Assembly (NCBI GenBank): GCA_001662655.1
Contig: KV460262.1
DNA: 64,000 bases
From: Pseudogymnoascus verrucosus
Lineage: Eukaryota
Direction: 5' to 3' (one strand)
A program made the translations under genes and the position numbers. The notes below the pieces were generated by a model. The model searched no databases and had not been told where the DNA came from. It worked only from the letters and a program-made list of their open reading frames with translations. This document shows, one piece after another, positions 1,707-62,234 of this stretch; the first letter of the stretch is position 1; each line of letters starts with the position of its first letter.

Positions 1707-2856
1707 ATGGCTCTCGTCGACTATAACTCCTCCAGCGACGATGAAGAGCTTCAAGATGGAGAAGATAGTTCCGCAGCTAAAAAGGAGGGAAACCCAACAG
1801 CAGCAGCCCCCTCGACAAACACTCCAGGCACCCTCAATCCTCCACGAAATACCCTAAAACGGAAACACGAAGCTGCGCCGCCCTCCCCCCTCCCCCCCTT
1901 ACCCTCCCGCTTCCTCGACCTCTACGCCTCCAACTCCCGCGCCAGCGCCCGCGACGACCCCTCCCTCCACGGCGGGCGCAAACGCACTACGCCGCATATC
2001 CAAGGCAACTGGCCAACCCACCTCTATATCGAGTGTAAACCACCCCTCCCATTCCCGCTATGAGAAACCCGAGTTCTGACATGCACAGGGTATCCGAATC
2101 CTACCGAGCACGAACTTCTCACATCGCTCGTTGATTCGTTCCGCGATCAGTCACGGTATGGGCCTGAATACGAGCGGGATCTGGACGTCCAGTCCCTTCT
2201 CACTAGTGGTCTCGGCTCCCCTCTCCCGCTGCATATCAGTTTATCCCGACCTATTGGGTTTAGCACAGCCACAAAAGACGCGTTTCTCACTTCTATCCAA
2301 ACAGCTATCTCAAATAGTGATATCCATCCGTGAGCTCCCCCCTGCTTTTGTGCACCACTTGATCACATGACTGACTACCTGCAGCTTCCCTATCACATTC
2401 AATGGCTGCGATTGGGCCTCTAATTACGAGGGAACGCGCTGGTTTCTGGCTCTACGAGTTGCAAAACCGCTAGAAGATAATCTAAATAAGCTACTACGAG
2501 TATGCAACGACACAGTCCAGTCACATGGCCAGTCTCCCCTCTATGCTTCCGCCCGGCCTCCTGACCCTGATACCCCGGCGCAAAACAAACTTCCACCACG
2601 ACCACCATCAAACTCACCTTCCCCGCAAAAAGACCTCTCATCCTCCTTCCACATCAGCATAGCATGGGCCCTCACCGCCCCGTCAAAGACATCAGATACC
2701 CCGAAATACCCCAGTGCCTCTGAAATCGAGAAACTGAATTCCGCGTCCATGCCAATCGTGGCTTCCGTGATCAAAGCTAAGATCGGGAATGTGGTGACGA
2801 GCATACCCCTTTCCGTAGAGCGGGAGGAAAGGAGAAAAGGACTTTTTGGGGTTTGA
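1707..2856 (+). CDS. USB1: U6 snRNA 3' phosphodiesterase (Usb1/Mpn1), 3 exons
   Basis: MALVDY..., DDPSLHGGRKR...GNWPTHLYIEW, and two 2H-phosphodiesterase motifs (LHISL, FHISI) recovered by splicing introns at about 2035-2088 and 2329-2384. Stop TGA 2854-2856. Confidence 0.92.
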
Positions 2857-2904
2857 ATAGAGTAAATAGACCTTAATATGAAATTATACTTCCAAGAATC
2901 CAAC

Positions 2905-3183
2905 CTACTGCTCCTGACCTTCTTTGTGAACCTTACTCCTGACTGCTCCCATAGATGAGGCGTGCACGTACTTGCCTTGGAGAACATATAAGCTACTCCT
3001 TACATATACATTGATTCGGTCACAAGTGCAACAGCTGGTATCCGGGTTCGCAATTTTCCTACCTATGTGAAGAGAGCATTGGACGATGGCCACAATCACC
3101 CACAAAGGACTTCTGATGTGGTGTCCTATCCCTGGGTGAAGCTGCCCATTGTGAGCCGCTGGGGCATTATTCATGCGGTATAA
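2905..3183 (+). pseudogene. Decayed GIY-YIG nuclease-like gene fragment, copy A
   Basis: Reads LTFFVNL...R*GVHVLALENI*ATPYIYIDSVTSATAGIRVR...PTYVKRALDDG / frameshift / TITHKGLLMWCPIP. Stops at 2956 and 2989. Aligns by eye with copies B and C. Confidence 0.7.
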
Positions 3184-3204
3184 TCTCAAACACATGAAGG
3201 GTCT

Positions 3205-3301
3205 GCCTGGATTGCTGCTGCTTCTCGTGTAAAGGCTGCGGTGGTAGGAGCGTAGCGGTGACAGCAGCGGCAACGGCGACAGCAGTTCAGCGGCAAGAAA
3301 G
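3205..3301. repeat. Diverged ~100-bp leader repeat, unit 1 of 3
   Basis: tggattgctgctg...cgtgtaaaggc...gtggtaggagcgtagcggtgacagcagcggcaacggcgacagcagttcagcg matches the units at about 3700-3830 and 4385-4492. Confidence 0.75.
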
Positions 3302-3469
3302 CCCCCGGTAAGATATCCCCCTCTATACCGTAAACGAACGTGGAGTAATCACAGGGACTACGGCGAAGCATCTCGACCTCGACAGTACCAGCGGTCTTGA
3401 TTTTTTTCTTCCAGTGGTAATTTGTTGCACTGTGAGCCGTCAGTGCATTGTGCTCGCGGCAGGTTATAT

Positions 3470-3705
3470 CATCGCCCGAAAAGGGCTGCTCCCCTGACTT
3501 CTGATCCCGCCTTCAGCAGATATTCCAAGTCATATACCCCCATATTCCTATAGGAGACTTGATTCCTAGAGACTTTGGGTTGCTTTCGCCCGAGCAGCTC
3601 AAAAAGGCCGCTGTAGATGTCAAGGCGAAGATGGTCTCCTACCACGCTGAAAAGCACCAGCAAAGCTCTGCTCCCTCATCCAAGTTCCGCCGGCGCAGTC
3701 GGCAT
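3470..3705 (-). pseudogene. Possible N-terminal fragment of the same GIY-YIG-like family, copy D
   Basis: Follows leader unit 2 and ATG 3705. VGDHLRLDIYSGLFELLGRKQP...GVY resembles copy B (LGRH...FCDGLFEAF...APP...WGIY). The plus strand (DFGLLSPEQLKKAA) is an alternative reading. Confidence 0.4.
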
Positions 3706-3830
3706 GGATTGTTGGTGCCGCTGCTGGTGCCGCCGTTGCTGATCGTGTAATGGCCGCAATAAAGGCCGGGGTGGTAGGAGTGCGGCCGGTGACAGGAACG
3801 GCACGACAGCAACAGCTTCAGCGACGTGAA
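3700..3830. repeat. Diverged leader repeat, unit 2 of 3
   Basis: ggcatggattgttgg...gatcgtgtaa...aaaggccggggtggtaggagtgcggccggtgacaggaacggcacgacagcaacagcttcagcg. Confidence 0.75.
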
Positions 3831-3849
3831 TCATGGTATGTGCACTGGA

Positions 3850-4215
3850 ATCGGAATCGGAATCGCAGTCGGAATCAGAATTAGATACCAGACGAGTAAC
3901 CCTCTATGCCAGACTTTATACCCATTTTCTATTGTAGTTTTAACGTAACGAAGAAACGGCCCGGATTTAGAGTATTGCCCCAGTCGACGACGGACGCCAT
4001 GTAGAGAAGAGGTACCGGATCTCCCACCTAAATGAGGGACCTGGACCCTTCCTTCTCATGGAGGATGACGTATATTCCCCATTGGTCAATAGACGCTGCA
4101 GAAAGTGCTCGTGGGGAATTAGACAGTTGGAGGCGCATCACAACTCCTTAAAAGGCCTCGAAGAGGCCGTCGCAGAAGCAGAAGGAGAAGACGGAGTGGC
4201 GACCAAGGCTGTCTC
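3850..4215 (-). pseudogene. Decayed GIY-YIG nuclease-like gene, copy B
   Basis: Minus strand reads QWGIYVILHEKEGSRSLI*VG / SGTSSLHGVRRRLGQYSKSGPFLRYVKTTIENGYKVWHRG / LLVWYLI. Literal GIY at 4078-4070, a [Y>*]VG motif and a downstream Arg, with in-frame stops and frameshifts. Confidence 0.75.
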
Positions 4216-4384
4216 TTTCTCCTGTGACGGCCTTGAGAATGCCGATTATATATGTCATGGGTTCCTCCTGTCCGTGACCTCGAAATTCCTTTGTGTACGG
4301 CGGACTATGCAGTCACAGCCCCCTACGGGACGTCGTTCCTGTAAACTTCAGACTCTCGCCACGAAACTTGAGGCACCGTGACCG

Positions 4385-4506
4385 GCGTGAATTACTACTC
4401 CTGCTTCTCCTGCTCATGTAAATTCCAGAGCGGTGGCAAGACTGCAGCGACGACAACAGCGCCACGACAGCAGCAGCCCCAGCGACAAGAAACCCCCCCC
4501 CCCCCC
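4385..4506. repeat. Diverged leader repeat, unit 3 of 3, ending in a poly-C run
   Basis: ctgcttctcctgctcatgtaaattcc...cggtggcaagactgcagcgacgacaacagcgccacgacagcagcagccccagcgacaagaaa followed by C14. Confidence 0.65.
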
Positions 4507-4695
4507 TCCCTACCTGGCTAAGATACACCGCCGCCACAACCGTAATCAAGTCCCGTTACCCGACAGCCGCCGCAGGAAGGCCCTGAAAAAAGTATCTTGG
4601 AGGTGGTATGGCCCCTTGGATGGGCTCGTTAAGGCTGGCACAGAATGATAAAGAGGTAGTGGCAAGTGAAAATTGATTTAAGGGGGGGATTATAG

Positions 4696-4952
4696 TGAGG
4701 AGTGTATGTCGTACTCCTCGAAAAGATAGATGCCTGGCCCATAATCTATATTAGATCCTGTGATTCTTCTCTGAGGGGTGTTCGTTATCGCGTTGTGCAG
4801 TATTCAAAATCTAGTCTTCATTCTCTTCGTTTTGTCAAAGCCACCCTCCAAAATGAATACGAAATCCCACATAAGGGGCTACTTCTCTGCCCCCCGCGTC
4901 ATTTACATATCCATACAAGCGATGATCACTTTCCGTTTCTGGGCGATGCACT
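4696..4952 (+). pseudogene. Decayed GIY-YIG nuclease-like gene fragment, copy C
   Basis: *GVYVVLLEKIDAWPIIYIRSCDSSLRGVRYRVVQYSKSS...LRFVKATLQNEYEIPHKGLLL / RVIYISIQAMITFRFWAMH (ORFs 4702..5031 and 4778..4999). No start codon; frameshifted. Confidence 0.72.
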
Positions 4953-5779
4953 CAATCCGGATAAGGCCCAGCAGCGTGCTCGGCGTGAATTTCTCCTGAT
5001 GCTGCTGTTGCACACCCCATTCCCCCGGTAAAAGACACAGGTGTGACAGTGGATCATGCCTTAGTTGCCGCTCATACCATGACAATTTCTTTTCCAAGCA
5101 CGAACAGCTGCAGGAAGAAGGCCCCGAAAGAACTCGATCGATATTTTATGCATTTAACCACGACTAATTATCAGAGCCTCGTAGATCACACACCCCATCA
5201 CTCAGATAAAATCAGACAATCACGGAGCCTCACTCACAATAGATCGGCAAGGTAAGATATAAAAACTTGATTTCCCCTCAACACACGCCTCCTCCCTACC
5301 CCTATCCCCCATCCCCATCCCCACCAAGCCCAGCCAGTCCTATCAAATACCAAAAAAACAAGCAATAAAAAAAAAGACAAAAACGCCATCCCATGATCCA
5401 TAATTCCCACACACATGTCCGCAAAGCCAGAAAAAAAAAGCCAAAAGCCAAAGCCAAATATGTCCCGCCCGAAACCCGAAGAAAGCATCAGGAGCCGACA
5501 TATCGCATCGTAGATTTTCCATGCAAAGAAATAAAAGCTAATCCTTTGCCCTATATAGTAAAAAGTTGAGTATTGCCAGCCAAAAAAGAACAACGTATAG
5601 ATCGGCGATTCGGGGGGGAAAACGAAGTGCGAAAATTTGAACGCCGTGATTTCCCATTGCCGAACGGAATGGGGGGTATCCTCATCGATCTCAGCAGCCG
5701 TGATAACTATAAGTCCGGCGTATTATATCCCTCCTCTCCCTCTCCTCTCCTCTCTCTTCGCAAGCAATCAAACCCTTAC

Positions 5780-7775
5780 TCACGGCTCATGCTTAACCCT
5801 CTTCGCCTCCCCTCCTCCCCCCCCATCCTCGGCATCAGGACTCTTCCTCTTCCCCCCCATCCCCGCCGGCTCATGCAAAAAACTCGGTCCACTCCCCACC
5901 ACCGGCGTCGCGAAATTCAGCGGACTAGGGAGTGTATTCCCGTCTCCGCCCCTAAAATTCCACTCGGGGTAGAAACTACTCGGGCTCGGTAGGAGTTCAT
6001 TGTTCATGAATCGACTAGGGAGTGCGGACACAGGTGTCTCGATTTCATTCCCACCACCGCGACCACCGCCGCCGGGACCACCGCCGCCGCCGCCGCCTTG
6101 GTTAGGTGGATGGGGTCGCGCGAAGGGGTTTGGTGGACCGGAGGCGCCGGCGCTGAGGAGGGCGGAGGCGGAGGGGGAGGGGGGGGGGAGGACGACGCCG
6201 GAGCTGTGACTTGCGTCTGTGCCTGGCCCGCCGCGGCGGGAGGGGTGGGAACCGGTGTCGTTTGATTCGCGGGGGGAGTTGGTGGAGGCGCCTGTTGCTT
6301 CACCTCCATCCGACGGTTCATCGGGGATCTGGACAGTGAGACGGGGTCGCTTGCCGCTTAGTTGCACAGAGTTGGTGCGGGAGGGTGGACCGGTGGGGGG
6401 TGTGAATTTGTCTGAGGAGGGCGGGGGTTTGATGGAGTTTGTTGGGTGCAGGGGAGGGGATTTGATGGTGCCGTTGCGGGAGTCGAGGGAGGAGGTGGAG
6501 GTGCGGTTGGTGAGTGCGGGTTCGCTGCGGGAGGGTTCGGGGGCGGAGGTGGATGAGATCCAGTGCTGGGAGAGGATGGAGCGGGATTCGTCGATGGGGG
6601 TGAAGATGCTGCGGGATTTAACGGATGGTCGTTTTGGCTCGAGCATCTGCCCCGTGTTGTGTGACTGTTGGGGTTGCGGCGGCGGTTGGTGGTGTTGTTG
6701 GGGTGATGGATGGTGTTGCTGGGGCGGTGGAGGTGCTAGTTGATGTTGTGGCTGCTGCTGCTGCTGCTGTTGTTGTTGCTGTTGGTGCTGCTGCTGCTGC
6801 GGAGGTATTTGTCGTTGTTGCGGTTGCGGAGGAGTATTCATAGGCCCCGATTCTTGACGTTCTTGCTTTGGAAACACAGGAGGCATTGATGAGCGCCGCT
6901 GCTCTTCCATATACACCTGCTGAAGCTGGTGAGACGGTGGCGGCGGACCTTGCTGGTACTGATATGAGGGCTGCTGCTGCTGCGGCGGCGGTTGGCTATG
7001 CGGCGGCATATTCTGTCCATGCGGAGGCATGTTCTGCCCATGCTGCTGCTGTGGGTTGTACATCCCCGGCTGTGGCATATACGAGTAACCATTCATAGGC
7101 GGCGAAGGCTGAGGGCCCTGCTGCATATGCTGTTGCGCCATATTCGAGTTTACGCGATGAGGAGCATTCCGTGACGCTGGCCGGGATCCCATCTGCGGTG
7201 GCGGTTGAGGCGTGTGCTGGCGCTGTATATTCTGGAAATGCGCGCCGTTCTGTATGGGTGGTGAAGCCGAGGGAGCTTGTCGCATGTGCTGAAACGCCGC
7301 TTGGGATTGGAAATGCGGTCGCATCATGGGTCCTCCTTCTTGTGGGTGGCCTTCGTCCATGACAGAGCCCTCGTCATCCTCATCATCGTCGTCTCGTTTG
7401 CCGTTGAAGTCCGATGGACCCTTGTGCTCGTTTGCGCCGCCATACTGATTGATAATGTTAGCCACGCTCGTATTACTGATCGCGCCGTGTACGCTACTCA
7501 CAAAGTTGTGCCGTTGGAGGATCTCTCCAATATCCGAGGACGAATATTCGTATAACTTCTTGTTGTTGCCAAATATTATGACTGCGACATCGACAGAACA
7601 GAGGACGGAAAGCTCATGCGCCTTCTTGAACAGCCCTCCTTTACGCTTCAGAAACGTTCTGCAAGGGGAACATGTCAGTCAACAGCGCCAGCAGATAGAA
7701 AATCATCACCACGACGTACACTGAGCGATTTCTATCATCCTTGATAGCCTTGATTTCGATCTTGCGACGACCCAT
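5780..7775 (-). CDS. RLM1: MEF2-type MADS-box transcription factor (Rlm1/RlmA), cell-wall integrity pathway
   Basis: ATG 7775 [19 protein letters not shown] / [29 protein letters not shown]. Introns at about 7660-7719 and 7445-7501. Q/P-rich body; C-terminal [11 protein letters not shown]...[12 protein letters not shown]...[10 protein letters not shown]. Confidence 0.95.
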
Positions 7776-8607
7776 GATGAATGCGCGCCGAGTCCCCGGC
7801 TAGTCGTACTGAAGGTGTCGATAAACGGGTATCGCAGTGGTGCTGGAGCCTAGCGACGCGTCTAATTTAACTCCCTCAATCTCTATCGATCCTTCGCGCG
7901 ACCGGAAATTATATCCTACAATCCTATTCCTTCGGTCCCGAGCTCGTGTGGGTATTTCGCAGACTCGGTATATCCTCGACGCTTTGGACTGAGAGGTTGG
8001 TTTCCCAAGCTCCTCAGGCGGGTCGAGTAGAGAATTGAGCCGGTCGCAGGCCCTCTCTAGAGACACAGAGTCTCGATAATTACCAACGAGAGTCGATGGC
8101 GGGGTATTGTCGCCGCGACGATGGGTCGAGTCTATGAGGTTGTGATATACTTTTGGCGCACAGTCGGCACTTTTTGGGCTGAGCGATGATGTTGATGCTA
8201 ATAATAGAGAAGGGTTCTTGCGGCGGAGGGAGGCGGCGTGTTCTCGTGCAGTGGAAGGGTTTCTTGGGGGGTGCGTTGTGGGGGTGAGTGGGTGACCGTA
8301 GATATGAGTGACATGTCCAACACATAGTAAATTGGTAATGAGAAGAAGTACCGCTAGTTATAAAGTGTGTGAGAGTAGTGTGAGAGAGTGTGTGAGTGGT
8401 CCCTTGGTAGTCGCAGACTAAGAAATACAAGGGTACATGGTCTTAGTGCTGTCCCTGTTAAGCGCCGCTGCGGCCAATCGGTCGATACGGAGGACCTGTT
8501 CGACCTAAATGGCAAAAAGACCCAGGTACGTACTCGGTAGCCCCTCCACAATTGGTGGAGAGGAGGAGCGTGCATGGACCAACTATGTGCTATGCTGCAC
8601 CAAGCGT

Positions 8608-8617
8608 CTATAAATAG
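8608..8617. promoter_or_regulatory. Perfect MEF2/Rlm1 consensus site CTA(A/T)4TAG upstream of RLM1
   Basis: CTATAAATAG about 830 bp 5' of the RLM1 ATG. Confidence 0.5.
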
Positions 8618-9939
8618 ATAGCCGTTTGGGATAGTACAGCTCTGCCACAGAACAACTACCACGAATTCTAGAACCGGCACTTGGAAGAACGGAGTTGGAT
8701 GTTGGATACGTAGCCGTCTCTGTGATCCCATAAGAGATGAACTTCATTCAGACGTCATTCTCTCATCGACGTCAACACCAGGAGCAGTATAGTACAGTAT
8801 TACAGTATCAGCTTTGCCGTACATATCATACTGCACAAATCCGGCTCTGACCTCTCCCCTCACAATGGCTTGGCTCTCTCTCTGCCGTATACGAGCTTCA
8901 CCGTCCCTCCCGGCTTTCCCAAGCCCTGTCACCGTGAAACAGCCGAAGCAGCCCATCACACGCCCTGGCCGCATACACGAGCGACCAGCAAAACCAACAC
9001 AGAACTTGCACGCACGCAAGTAGCCCAGAGCATCTCCTCAACTAGGCCGCCTCCTATCCCGCTCGCTCGTTGCCTGCAGTAGAGTGCACATATGGACGAC
9101 GAACGAACAGTATGAGTGTAAACGAGGAGGCGCAGACGCCTGTAACCGCGGGTGTAACGCTGTCAGGCTGATTGGTGCCTCTGGACGCGGTGCCCAGGAG
9201 AGGCTGGCTGCCCAGCTTTCGTGTTGGACTCCTTCGGCCAGGTGCATAGCCCACCCACCAGCTCTGTCAATTACAGTGGTGACTTTCTTACCTTCAATCC
9301 CTCTATCGTTGACCGGTTGATGAACACTCCACACGCCCGCAGCCTCTTCCGGCTCCCCGGCACATCTGCTGTTGTTGGAGTGTTGGAAGTGTATGCATCT
9401 CCAACCTCACGAAACCACAAAGTCGAGCTCACCACATTCTGCCCCACCCGCTGCCACAACCCCATGTTTCAGCCCTGTGCACCCTGTCCCAGATGTAAAT
9501 ATCCTACCCTTCTGCGGCTCTTCACATGAGACCCTGTAGCGTTTCCCGTTTCTATTCCCGACGTCGAAACAGACTAACTCCCACGTGCTGTTCCCCCCAT
9601 CCAAAACACAACGATCACCATCGTCAAACCCCTCCCTGTGAATCCGAGGACACGGAAGGAAGGGAAAAGAACCTCCTCAATCGGACCGTTACCCCCGCCC
9701 CGGCTCGCAGCATGGAGCTGTTGTGTCATGCCTCACGTTTCTCCATCACCACATGTTTTAAGAGATGTTCAATTAAGCTTCATACAGTCAAACGCATCAT
9801 CCCATCCCGGTAATCTGCATGCTCCCCCCGCCATCCCTGATCGCACGACCTCGTGGTGGATAAGAATAGAACACACCATCCCAAAATCCACGAGCGGCAC
9901 ATGCGCATACGCTACACCAGACCAGGCACCGTACCACCT

Positions 9940-58886: not shown

Positions 58887-59329
58887 CTTGATGTGGTGGA
58901 AGAGGGGTGGTTGTTTGATTGAGGAAGTCTTGGGTGTTTGAGACTACAGGGCGAGATTGTTACTATACAATATGTTAAATGAAATGATATTATACCCCCC
59001 ACTGTGAAAATACAATTACCATTTGGTATGATGGGGATCAAGAAGTGTTTCGTAGAGACCAGCAATCGAAGAAGAATTAGAACCTGCGCTCCGCATATTC
59101 CCTTACCCTATCTGAACAGTGACCATGTAAAGCCAGGGGTTGTCAACAGCAAAATAAAGGCAGTGACAACAGCGCATGGCGGCGAGAATGGCAGTGAGAA
59201 TGACAGGAGAATAACACGACAGCAACACCACACAGCGACAATGCAACCCACTTCCACCATTCTCAATATCTTCTCCACACATTCTCCCCCGGCTTCGTGT
59301 AGAGCCGGCTACAGGTTCGGCGTTGGGAA

Positions 59330-59500
59330 AGGGCCCGTCACAATGTCCTTTGCTTTGCTGTACGTAGACAATCCTCTGATCAAACCTTGTCCCATCCTCA
59401 ACTCTACTTAACGTATCCATAACTGAGTATCCTCACCCTCCCTGCTTTAGAACTCTCTTTGAGTAGATCCTTCGGAGTGAAGCTGCCATGTCCGAGATGA
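59330..59500 (-). pseudogene. Possible relic of an NLR-associated alpha/beta-hydrolase N-terminal domain
   Basis: SFTPKDLLKESSKAGRVRILSYGY resembles the WP.DLL...RIL.YGY motif. It is followed by stops. Confidence 0.35.
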
Positions 59501-59879
59501 TCTTTGCGACCTCCCATTTTTTTTGTACTTCCGCTACAGCCTCTTTGAGGCCATTCAATAGGCTCCGCATCATCTGATCGAGTTCTTTCGGGGTCTTCCT
59601 GCGGTGACTGTCCGATAATGAGTATATGTGTCATCGTTATGGAGAAGTCAGATAGATGCCAGGCCAATCATATACGTTGGCTGTGGAACATGTGGCCCTT
59701 TTCCCGTTTTGTTAGCGATGCTTTGCGAAATGGCCACGAAATCCCAAGTAAAGAGCTGGGGTGTTTGCATCTAGACCGAAGACCAACAGCGGCAGCGGCA
59801 GCGGCAGCGGCAGCGGCAACGGGGGATTGTCGACAACAAGAGAAGAGCGGTAACAACAGCACGTGGCGGTGAGAATGAC

Positions 59880-60670
59880 GGCATGAAGACTGATGTATCT
59901 TGGTAAGTTCAAGGGGTTCTGAGAGACGGAGGGCCGTTTTGGTGTGTTCATACATAGCGGTGGATTATCTGCTTCTTCGACAAAGGATGTCCGAGAACAA
60001 GGTAATTATCTGGAGTACAATAACCCCTATATCAAAGTACAAAGCACAAAGCACAACATCTGTTCATTCATTGTCTTGTTTTCTAATTCACCATAGACAA
60101 AGACGGGGGTGGGTTCACAATAGTCGAATGATTCGAACGAACAACCCCCTTCTCCTAAGTTTCATCTCATATTCACAAGATTACCAGGTCTATATAAGAC
60201 GACATGAACCTCCCTCTCATCTCTTCCGCTAACCAGAAACAGAGCAACACACTTTCCAGCACAATCAAAAGACAATCTAAAGCAGGAACATCATCAAAAA
60301 CCCTCTCGGCTTCTCCAACCTCCTTCAAGACACCCATCCCACCTCCTCTCCGCAACCATGCCTTCCACACAACTAACCTCCTTCACTAGATTCCCAAAGC
60401 TCCCCGTCGAGATCCAAGTTATGATCTGGCAGTATGCTATCCATTCTGTCCCAAGTGGCATACTACTATGCTACAGACCGGACAGGCTATCGGCCGAGGT
60501 TCTTACCTGCGGCGGTCCTGCAAGCATGTTATCTCTCGCGCCTGCTGGCACAGGAGCGTTGGACGCTAGGCATACCTAATGATGCTACTGTTAACAAGAA
60601 GGTGTATATTGATGTTGGGAGGGATGCAATCTTCTACTTTGGTCCTCCGCAGCATGATGATAGTAGGTAA
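59880..60670 (+). repeat. Duplicated unit 1 (upstream region plus 2EXR gene)
   Basis: Collinear blocks shared with 61370-62234: gcatgaa(a)gact, ttcgacaaaggatgtcc.agaacaa, aacaacccc, tttcatctcata, ctatataagac, gaacctccctc, aaccagaaaca, ccgcaaccatgccttccaca. Confidence 0.85.
60358..60670 (+). pseudogene. 2EXR-domain gene, frameshifted
   Basis: MPSTQLTSFTRFPKLPVEIQVMIWQYA in one frame; PAAVLQACYLSRLLAQERW...KKVYIDVGRDAIF in another, with no plausible intron between them. Confidence 0.75.
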
Positions 60671-61254
60671 GTCGCTTAGAGGCTTGAGATGGTGGTCTTT
60701 ATATATATACATATTAGCATACTAGAGCGGCTGCGAAGGCGATATAGCAGGATAATGGAGGTGGTAGCAAAATCAGTGATAGAAAATAATAGGTAGGTCA
60801 TAACAAGTGGGTCTTTCATCAGCTTAACTCAGCGGTCTTTAATATATACCATATCCCAGCATTCTATAACAACTGCGGCAGGGTTAGTCTTTTGGATAGT
60901 TCGCCCCTATACCATGATCATGTACCCATCCCCTTTTTTACTTTGAGCCGTGTCTCCATTGACCCTGCTAGTGTGGATGACGGTGTTGTGGTGTAGTTGG
61001 TATTAGGATTAGTTGGTGTTAAGATTGGACATCTCATGTAAATAGCTCGAGAAACTGCTTGCTTTTTCGGGAAAGCAGTATCCTCGTTCTCCTCCACGAT
61101 CCCCGTCTCCTTGTGGCCGATACCTTCTTGCCCATTCCCTATAGGGTTGGGGATTGGGGCGCGAGAGGCTAAAGGGGATGAATGGCTTCGCGTTTATGTA
61201 GAGTTATCTGAATGTGCCGCTGCAGTCCTGGGATGGGATAGGATGAGAGGGTGA

Positions 61255-61442
61255 GGGAAGGGAGAAGTGCATGAAAGACTTCCAAGGCCGATTAGGTTTT
61301 GGGAATTTTAAGGGTTTTTCAAAGAGGGAGGGCCGTTTTGATAAGGTGGGGGATGGGAAGGGGGAGAGCATGAAAGACTATCAAGGTCGATTCGGACTTG
61401 GAAACTTTGAGAGTTCTGAAAGAGGGAGGGTTGCTTTGATAG
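61255..61442. repeat. Tandem ~98-bp diverged duplication
   Basis: gggaaggg...gcatgaaagact.caagg.cgatt.gg..ttgg.aa.ttt.ag.gtt...aa.agagggaggg occurs twice; a third related copy lies at 59881-59945. Confidence 0.8.
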
Positions 61443-61781
61443 AATCCATATGCAGCCGTGGATCATTTGTTGTTCGACAAAGGATGTCCAAGAACAAAGA
61501 TGGAGACTAGTTCGCCCACCAAGGACGAATGATTTGAAATGAACAACCCCGTCTTCCTGGTTTCATCTCATACTCGCGCCACAATAAACAATACGACCGG
61601 TTCTATATAAGACAGTGCGAACCTCCCTCCCATCTCCTCCCTAAACCAGAAACACACCAACACAGCTCGCCAACAAAATCGCAATCCAATCTAAAAGAAA
61701 AAAAAGCATCCTCAAAAACCCTCGCAGCTTCTCAAAACTCCTCTTTTCGAGATATCCTCATCCCATCTCCTCCCCGCAACC

Positions 61782-62234
61782 ATGCCTTCCACATAGCTAA
61801 CCTCCTCTCCCAGCTTCCGCGACCTCCCCGTCGAGATCAAAATCATGATCTGGAGATTCGCCATCCACGCCGTCCCAGGCCGCGACGTAATCATCCACCA
61901 CAGGCCCCTCCCCTACATCCCCCTACCCATCCCCGACGTCCTTCCACGAACCGAGATCACCTCCAGCACGCCAATCCCCGCCGTCCTACACGCATGTCAC
62001 CTCTCGCGGCTGCTGGCGCAGGAGCGGTGGATGTTAAGCTTGGGAGCACATGCGGCTGCCGAGAAGAAGGTGTATGTCGATGTGGAGACTGATTCGATTC
62101 ATTTCCCGGTCCAGACGTTGTTGATGATCTGGCACCATGATGGGGATTGGGAGGATCTGTTGAGGTTTGCTGGGAGGGAGAATATTCATGTGGTGGGGGG
62201 TTGGCATGGCTTGAATCCTGAGCTCACGCATTAG
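61782..62234 (+). pseudogene. 2EXR-domain gene with a stop at codon 5
   Basis: ATG CCT TCC ACA TAG (61794-61796, where the paralogue has CAA), then SFRDLPVEIKIMIWRFA...IPAVLHACHLSRLLAQERW...KKVYVDVETDSIHF. Confidence 0.8.

Follow-up and report, generated by a model that had tools for sequence, protein, structure and literature searches.

Dead pieces of GIY-YIG-type nuclease genes in a Pseudogymnoascus verrucosus spacer point to a nuclease family of spliceosomal introns in essential fungal genes

The spacer between two genes of the fungus Pseudogymnoascus verrucosus contains about eight pieces of nuclease genes, on both strands and none of them intact, at 2.9 to 5.1 kb of a 64,000-nucleotide (nt) stretch of DNA (G000:C57:124001-188000, on one contig of the 30.2-Mb assembly) that is called the window throughout. 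Contigs of the P. verrucosus assembly are labeled G000:Cnn, numbered loci Lnnn, and proteins of the nuclease family Pnnnn. The spacer is bounded on the left by an HVSL-family gene, which we take to be USB1, and on the right by an SRF-TF gene, presumably RLM1; a further piece, copy D, lies near the other end of the window. The features, with positions in the window and in a profile of the nuclease family, are as follows.

1707..2856, + strand: left flanking gene of the HVSL family (Pfam PF09749, E = 5e-29), its stop about 50 nt upstream of the first fragment
2899..3183, + strand: copy A, nuclease core, profile positions 83-167 (protein profile, 34 bits)
3205..3310, + strand: motif X copy 1, about 100 nt of degenerate GACAGC/GGCAGC units
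3342..3470, - strand: weak piece of the zinc-finger/3' region (DNA profile E = 0.003; E = 0.015 over the whole window)
3453..3675, + strand: pieces A2, profile positions 147-172 and 218-263, post-core motif and linker of SSB type
3725..3840, + strand: motif X copy 2
3855..4195, - strand: copy B, profile positions 65-170 (50 bits), frameshift within the YIG strand
4251..4379, + strand: piece G, profile positions 198-240 with the W..YGGLCSH motif (30 bits), SSB clade
4395..4500, + strand: motif X copy 3
4559..4699, - strand: piece E, N-terminal part, profile positions 61-94, SSB clade
4696..4960, + strand: copy C, profile positions 99-193 (54 bits)
4971..5014, + strand: partial X-upstream repeat, matched at the DNA level only (E = 0.003 to 0.009 across this remnant and the next, 4971..5140)
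5095..5140, - strand: short remnant of an N-terminal piece, matched at the DNA level only (same E range)
5780..7760, - strand: right flanking gene, a MADS/SRF transcription factor (PF00319, E = 8e-18), convergent with the left flank
59125..59250, + strand: X-like motif upstream of copy D
59452..59770, + strand: copy D, N-terminal part and core with an internal deletion (protein profile, 23 bits)
59780..59885, + strand: X-like motif downstream of copy D, perfect GGCAGC repeats

An earlier note on this DNA, made from the sequence alone, had described three or four decayed, mutually alignable copies of a GIY-YIG nuclease-like gene between USB1 and RLM1. The site is as described, fragments A, B, and C lie where the note had placed them, and their decay is evident; their number was set too low, as the profile adds +3453-3530 and +3538-3675 (the two protein-profile matches that make up A2), +4251-4379, -4565-4666 (within piece E, which abuts copy C on the opposite strand), and copy D (+59523-59693, profile positions 66-121), and a DNA profile adds the weak piece at -3342-3470. 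B and C share 63% nucleotide identity over 196 nt (E = 4e-13), and a profile made from B and C alone matches A with an E value of 7e-6 when run against the window cut into 2,562 six-frame chunks, of which the best unrelated one scored 0.29. Every core in the cluster has lost catalytic positions or its reading frame. In copy A, which the protein profile matches at +2911-3139 with a tail reaching about 3183, stops occur at the conserved W and in strand 2, and the first catalytic Tyr has become His; copy C has a stop for the W, Arg for the YIG Gly, a frameshift, past which it reaches FWAM (ending at about 4954), and Gln for the catalytic Glu. The window pieces make no nuclease.

The Pfam GIY-YIG model called none of nine window open reading frames (ORFs), and Rfam over 2800-5800 gave nothing near gathering score, no RNA family, and no ribozyme match. 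A signature of repeat-induced point mutation is absent from the cluster (TpA/ApT, 0.80 versus 0.73 for the window). No host-exon remnants were found in the cluster with 21 host references, and a search for duplicated ends of neighboring genes (six genes against three clusters) gave low-complexity matches only. A search for fold-backs at the strand switches, with a script that had no positive-control validation, was empty, and copy C, translated across its frameshift, had no match among the 37 candidates of a word-indexed search.

A family profile built from eight unaltered window pieces (cutoff, E ≤ 0.001) matches 479 representatives of clusters at 50% identity among 1.84 billion. The typical member of about 370 amino acids (aa) has a helical N terminus, the pattern W-x-x-Y...Y-I-G-S-G-T...G-V-x-x-R with a later L-E-A, and then a W..YDGLCSH motif, a helical linker, and jaz/met-type C2H2 zinc fingers. 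Among 81 members, Y86, Y100, T105, P150, and E166 are invariant and G102 and R114 are conserved in at least 90%; we take the Tyr, Tyr, Arg, and Glu residues to be catalytic, as in I-TevI. The Pfam GIY-YIG model gives no call (0 of 14 intact members match); the assignment is made from fold and conserved residues. The AlphaFold model of the intact relative P0041 (pLDDT, 95) has the catalytic domain of I-TevI as its top structural match (Z = 7.4; root mean square deviation, 2.2 Å; 88 of 92 residues), with T4 EndoII, UvrC, and Eco29kI further down the match list, and the top three Foldseek matches are also I-TevI, at nonsignificant E values. Tested on this intact relative rather than on the window fragments, the family is shown to combine a predicted GIY-YIG-fold domain with C2H2 zinc fingers, and the nuclease identity proposed in the earlier note is upheld in that form.

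In the Atlas the clusters of the family are ascomycete, with GIY-YIG clusters as subthreshold neighbors; named members come from Fulvia, Neophaeococcomyces, Zymoseptoria, Elasticomyces, Lachnellula, Coleophoma, Fusarium, Diaporthe, Pleopsidium, and Lipomyces. In databases, several members bear the label aconitase or cpa2, or form fusions with domains of aconitase or HSP70. A PDB sequence search returned zinc-finger matches only among the best 60 listed, and of 14 matches to one pattern in viral contigs none was confirmed as a relative. P0103, with 1,515 aa, has two tandem family cores and many zinc fingers and is possibly a domesticated protein or a gene-model fusion.

Intact members lie inside introns of housekeeping genes in other fungi. 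We kept 80 of 88 confirmed metagenome loci, a set that is biased to intact copies and includes some duplicates of one organism. Here the nuclease ORF splits conserved genes of the same strand, encoding aconitase, HSP70s/SSB, pyruvate carboxylase (PYC), SF3B1, a DEAD-box helicase, CPA2/URA2, clathrin heavy chain, amine oxidase, ATP synthase, and MutS. A codirectional host exon is present on at least one side at 58 of the 80 loci; among the 22 others, the eight with an intact ORF are all on contigs of at most 2.3 kb, and the long ones (L065, L073, and L082) are broken, L073 probably lying in a peptidase intron. A blind test of all donor/acceptor pairs put GT-AG first in 8 of the 13 cases; these introns have a CTAAC/T branch site and measure 1.36 to 1.88 kb. 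The five remaining junctions involve a distant reference or extra small exons; two of them were fixed by peptide anchors and one, GC-AG, by inspection. Overall, the nuclease-bearing spliceosomal introns measure 1.3 to 2.7 kb and occupy recurrent codons, with one PYC site recurring across nine loci, and other species have no intron at the codon where an intact family intron sits. The SSB site, compared across eight loci, is intron-less in three, holds a short intron in one, a nuclease-bearing intron in one, and an intron without measured length in two, and is outside coverage in one.

A quick maximum likelihood tree of 72 rows revealed nuclease clades that track the target gene, with SH-aLRT (approximate likelihood ratio test) values of 98 for SSB (eight rows), 97 for other HSP70s, 98 for DEAD, and 99 for one clathrin site; support for the CPA2/URA2 group is low (81), and rows from aconitase are scattered. 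The CPA2 intron of L073, about 340 nt long, retains the final codons of a nuclease ORF and looks like an intermediate caught in passing. The intact members look like homing introns and presumably do home.

Several further observations concern these loci. TG or GG precedes the next exon at the URA2/CPA2 site of L012, L017, L018, and L073, where donor and branch site are canonical and the acceptor is possibly complex or shifted. In L050, a single clathrin heavy-chain gene contains two introns of the family at separate codons, and the ORF of one is decayed; in L014 and L058 a tandem partial nuclease ORF stands directly upstream of a second copy. L082/L083, from another fungus, holds a truncated, stop-bearing nuclease of the HSP70 clade between unrelated ORFs, a further ectopic relic.

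Penelope-like retroelements encode a GIY-YIG endonuclease and occur as tandem and inverted partial copies. This identity was rejected: no reverse transcriptase (RT) was found in 14 members or in 124 + 130 flanking ORFs, no ribozyme match occurs in the cluster, and the intron sites are fixed. The RT or recombinase neighbors raised in the earlier note are missing from these flanking ORFs of the family loci. The sole transposase in the first set of 124 flanking ORFs, a DDE_1 ORF at L059:5308-7056, lies 3 kb upstream of an intron-bearing DEAD-box gene and was taken as unrelated.

The window pieces could be compared with these target-specific clades. In trees from which 15 near-duplicate or long-branch rows were left out, A (support, 0.91), G (0.99), and E (0.93 to 0.98) fall in the clade of SSB-intron nucleases. 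By DNA profile, A, A2, E, G, and D are of SSB type (78.9 bits versus 20.4 bits for the URA2 group for A; 49.5 versus 30.6 bits for D, which the tree does not place firmly), and B belongs to another group (66.9 bits for the URA2/L014 group versus 31.7 bits for SSB, its tree placement being without support). The best BLAST matches of C are in the SSB clade, yet its DNA profiles tie and the tree gives no firm placement. The window pieces are 45 to 65% identical to intact relatives. Differences at codon positions 1/2/3 number 21/14/31 of 59 between B and C (Fisher p = 0.002, position 3 versus position 2) and 26/17/38 of 53 between A and C (p = 8e-5, same comparison), and position 3 exceeds position 2 in all five tested pairs (p = 8e-5 to 0.046), a bias that the profile-guided alignment may inflate slightly. 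Third codon positions vary more, so the copies diverged while functional, under purifying selection.

The codon-position bias in five of five pairs bears on the idea that one dead copy was duplicated and scrambled locally, with no repeated arrivals. That idea can draw on a short repeat common to the tail of A and to A2, with a stop at the same position, and on local duplications at a second cluster, on contig C29 (470 nt, 62%), and beside D; the bias and the occurrence of both SSB-type and URA2-type linkers speak against it, and we regard it as highly improbable. For cores A, B, and C it is largely refuted, and single pieces may have arisen in this way.

No intact copy, for which the earlier note had suggested looking, was found in this genome with three intact relatives as protein queries; such queries may miss weak debris, and those with P0011 and P0003 did miss the debris at D and C29. 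A second mosaic at C29:192.6-195.6 kb was found through motif X, and a single piece with an X core at C25:288.1 kb was found with query P0028; the linker pieces of both match URA2-intron nucleases best. In 338 kb scanned, core matches of at least 8 bits occur only at four loci (window cluster, D, C29, and C25), besides one coiled-coil match of 8.0 bits. The distance to the target gene is 14 kb between SSB and the window cluster and 21 kb between URA2 and the C29 cluster, the chance of such closeness being about 0.001 each for one named gene in a test made after the fact. L019 provides an independent case: an SSB-type leader and N terminus lie 8.4 kb from its own SSB site, which holds just a 57-nt intron.

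The target sites themselves were found in several states. Ordinary introns of this genome measure 55 to 59 nt. The intron at its SSB site has 402 nt and no ORF, with its junction and GTTAGT donor as in L016, the ORF of which is P0003, the second-best match to the window family profile. The introns at the URA2 site (about 325 nt), the CPA2 site (about 450 nt), and the PYC site (about 500 nt, with the L062 acceptor, 4 nt from the L038 junction) are also ORF-less. The second SSB site, the main PYC site, the clathrin sites, and the ATP2 site are intron-less here.

At these sites and debris loci, other sequence features were noted. The introns at the SSB, PYC, and URA2 sites (L109, L125, and L114) hold degenerate tandem repeats (56 nt x 4.3, 14 nt x 16, and 160 nt x 2, respectively), and similar minisatellites occur in the leaders of the intact introns L023, L016, and L073. 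About 350 nt past the SSB stop, L109 (G000:C57, about 110.3 to 111.1 kb) contains a 157-nt, 100% identical inverted copy of SSB 3' coding sequence, which reflects a recent fold-back event or an assembly artifact. At C29, a direct repeat of about 470 nt (L093:7695-8156 and 8462-8923 on G000:C29; 62%) is interleaved with nuclease pieces and X, and about 500 nt from the C25 fragment there are sequences that look tRNA-like by eye (L105:8800-8975). Copy D lies just 3' of an ERD2-family gene (PF00810) and is followed at 59899-62098 by two or three diverged tandem units (65 to 78% identical) with decayed 2EXR-family ORFs; an HET-domain gene lies just past the window end (L096:617-2572).

Fourteen related sequencing runs were available, of which X2, X3, and X4 (DNA) and X8 (presumed RNA) were compared and X5 to X7 and X9 to X14, which had small shares, were left out; nuclease parts uncovered in X3 or X4 are counted as absent only where a contig joins across. 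X2, from another study and about 99% alike, has the identical broken cluster. Both flanking genes are kept in X3 and X4, where 2883 is followed directly by an inverted X; 3825-4359 is skipped in X4, and X3 has 134 other letters in place of 4697-4838. The content of the USB1-RLM1 interval, a comparison with relatives suggested in the earlier note, therefore does differ between runs, and a clean empty site was seen in none of them. This spacer turns over fast, and across the related runs X and the spacers are better conserved than the nuclease parts. In X8, coverage is limited to flanking exons, with a 55-nt GT-AG intron in the HVSL gene, and has no bearing on expression of the cluster. In the last exon of USB1, 70 to 105 nt upstream of the cluster, the window differs from all three related DNA runs by eight substitutions in 35 nt (2750-2784), where about 0.3 is expected from the closest run (scan-corrected p of about 2e-7); this patch resembles a short conversion tract with a diverged allele as its donor.

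Motif X, about 100 nt long, follows most pieces. Within the 338 kb scanned, it is present at all four debris loci, as well as in one array that lacks clear debris. In any one locus its copies share a strand, and they come after pieces that are cut at different points; genome-wide, searches allowing up to three mismatches gave two and one matches. It has no consensus RNA structure (+ strand folded) and no family-profile match in any frame, and none of the identities tried for it (a decayed zinc finger, a reversed catalytic helix, or a duplicate of the USB1 3' end) was supported. The array of X-like units, at G000:C12:139300-141600 between convergent genes and 7 kb from ATP2 (E = 8e-4), gives a nuclease hint only at a BLASTX E value of 0.23 and is not counted as debris.

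The constancy of X and the variation between runs would be expected if a sublineage had left introns and become a free-standing element that homes to, or transposes into, the spacers at gene 3' ends, with X as its end sequence and the clusters as successive insertions, as in the WHO elements of yeast. X accompanies pieces at four of four loci (C29 was located by X alone), keeps a single-strand orientation per locus after differently cut pieces, and stands in a spacer of changing content next to the eight-change patch in USB1. We nevertheless consider this unlikely: this genome has no intact copy, the long outside loci without a host exon (L065 and L082) are broken, the three clusters show no duplicated host 3' ends, and the pieces derive from at least two intron-targeting clades. 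Nor is there support for the USB1-RLM1 spacer as the home of the element: every piece is truncated, the strands are mixed, and intact members with informative flanks are intronic rather than intergenic. What survives of the repeated arrival of a selfish element at one site, as the earlier note saw it, is thus the selfish origin and the several distinct copies; the site as a home and the arrival of whole genes do not.

The order of parts within a unit, an inverted piece, a sense piece, and then X, always with X on one strand, also fits retroposition, in which a LINE-type RT would start on an X-bearing RNA and switch to nuclease transcripts. LINE chimeras are known in fungi, and twin priming produces the 5' inversions that this would entail. 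Such chimeras are improbable here given the rarity of X in the genome, the lack of an RT among the flanking ORFs, and the closeness to target genes, which they do not predict.

A third possibility is that the X-marked spacers are traps, which keep pieces of invading nucleases in both orientations near their targets and silence the homing introns through antisense or double-stranded RNA. Such a role would suit the mixture of strands and of clades found at one site, the convergent flanks of the window cluster and of C25, and the loss of the ORF from four target introns of this genome. The flanks at C29 and D, however, are tandem, the divergence of the pieces from intact relatives is too great for silencing today, and in related runs the nuclease parts are less conserved than X and spacer sequence; we hold this to be quite improbable, at most on a par with retroposition.

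On balance, the cluster is probably dead, ectopic debris of nuclease genes from several invasions by homing spliceosomal introns rather than the remains of a free-standing element. More broadly, and with greater confidence, we consider it likely that the nuclear genes of ascomycetes are host to a large class of homing spliceosomal introns that come and go in cycles, acting as natural gene drives on the chromosomes and leaving ordinary introns in their wake. An intron-borne nuclease would cut intron-less alleles of its host gene, and repair of the break would copy the intron into the cut allele. Later loss of the ORF by internal deletion would leave an ordinary intron. Several such invasions, of SSB type and at least one other type, probably occurred in the P. 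verrucosus lineage, and faulty repair by template switching or local rearrangement would have left pieces, truncated and in part inverted, in spacers close by; one and the same spacer would have been struck repeatedly and would still be rearranging.

A number of points weigh against this account of debris from homing introns. Cleavage and homing are deduced from sequence comparison, and the mechanism of deposition is likewise conjectural. The fold match of Z = 7.4 is under the safe level of 8 for the tool, with Foldseek E values at 0.24 to 0.44. At the URA2 site, L012, L017, and L018 have a GTAAGT donor and a branch site and no AG directly before the next exon, and L015 gave no clear junction. 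The clade is firm for A, E, and G only; B, C, D, and the C29 cores have no clear or consistent place in the tree, and B favors a non-SSB profile. Proximity to a target holds for two of four loci, at about 20 kb, and was noticed post hoc: SSB lies 71 kb away from D, no recognized target gene occurs within 40 kb of the C25 piece, and no family debris was found near CPA2, PYC/clathrin, or ATP2. The four remnant introns have no detectable similarity to nuclease ORFs and could be old introns that nucleases invade elsewhere. Finally, X is absent from all 80 outside loci, and this account does not explain it.

Among known systems, the shintrons of mirusviruses consist of endonuclease ORFs, GIY-YIG among them, in GT-AG introns of essential genes, and homing has been inferred for them (PMC12768974). 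The intact fungal introns share with them the nuclease ORF in a GT-AG intron, the essential targets, the target-gene specificity, and the inferred homing. They differ in that the fungal hosts are nuclear housekeeping genes and the proteins add an N-terminal helical part and jaz/met zinc fingers; the window copies, in addition, are dead and intergenic, outside any intron. PMC12768974 notes an apparent lack of shintron equivalents in eukaryote genomes, and no other relevant paper that uses the term was found. Nor did a literature search that covered few subscription journals turn up any account of spliceosomal introns with a nuclease ORF in nuclear protein genes, whether of fungi or of other cellular organisms; PMC11889510 concerns introns of ribosomal DNA.

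The family resembles I-TevI and the GIY-YIG homing endonucleases of group I introns in catalytic fold and in its nuclease-linker-DNA-binding layout, but its host intron is spliceosomal rather than self-splicing, its targets are nuclear protein-coding genes, and sequence identity to I-TevI is 15 to 16%. The WHO elements of Torulaspora, according to bioRxiv 10.64898/2026.08.13.744650, are free-standing LAGLIDADG elements with intact members and duplicated FBA1 3' halves, and like the window cluster they present diverse nuclease and zinc-finger genes and pseudogenes just 3' of a gene, varying between isolates. In contrast, the window cluster is of GIY-YIG type, all broken, and of mixed strands, with no host 3' duplicates. 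A WHO identity was rejected on the GIY-YIG fold and motifs and the lack of duplicated host 3' halves. Introners, described in PMC11282704 as short, mostly nonautonomous, transposon-derived repeats, are like the family introns a route to new spliceosomal introns in fungi, but the family introns carry their own nuclease and occupy fixed codons.

A dead locus in P. verrucosus thus leads to a family of nuclease genes, hundreds in number, that reside in the spliceosomal introns of essential genes in fungi. The family accounts for database entries under the names aconitase, cpa2, or HSP70 in which an intron ORF is in fact fused to the named protein or stands in its place, and it is a source of many natural site-specific nucleases whose targets can be predicted. 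The late stages of life of such introns can be seen in one genome, as emptied introns of 325 to 500 nt at four nuclease sites, intron-less alleles at others, and debris near two targets; this late part of the cycle in a single genome and the clustering of debris are what the locus adds. If homing is true, these introns would be natural nuclear gene drives and would provide a testable route to intron gain.

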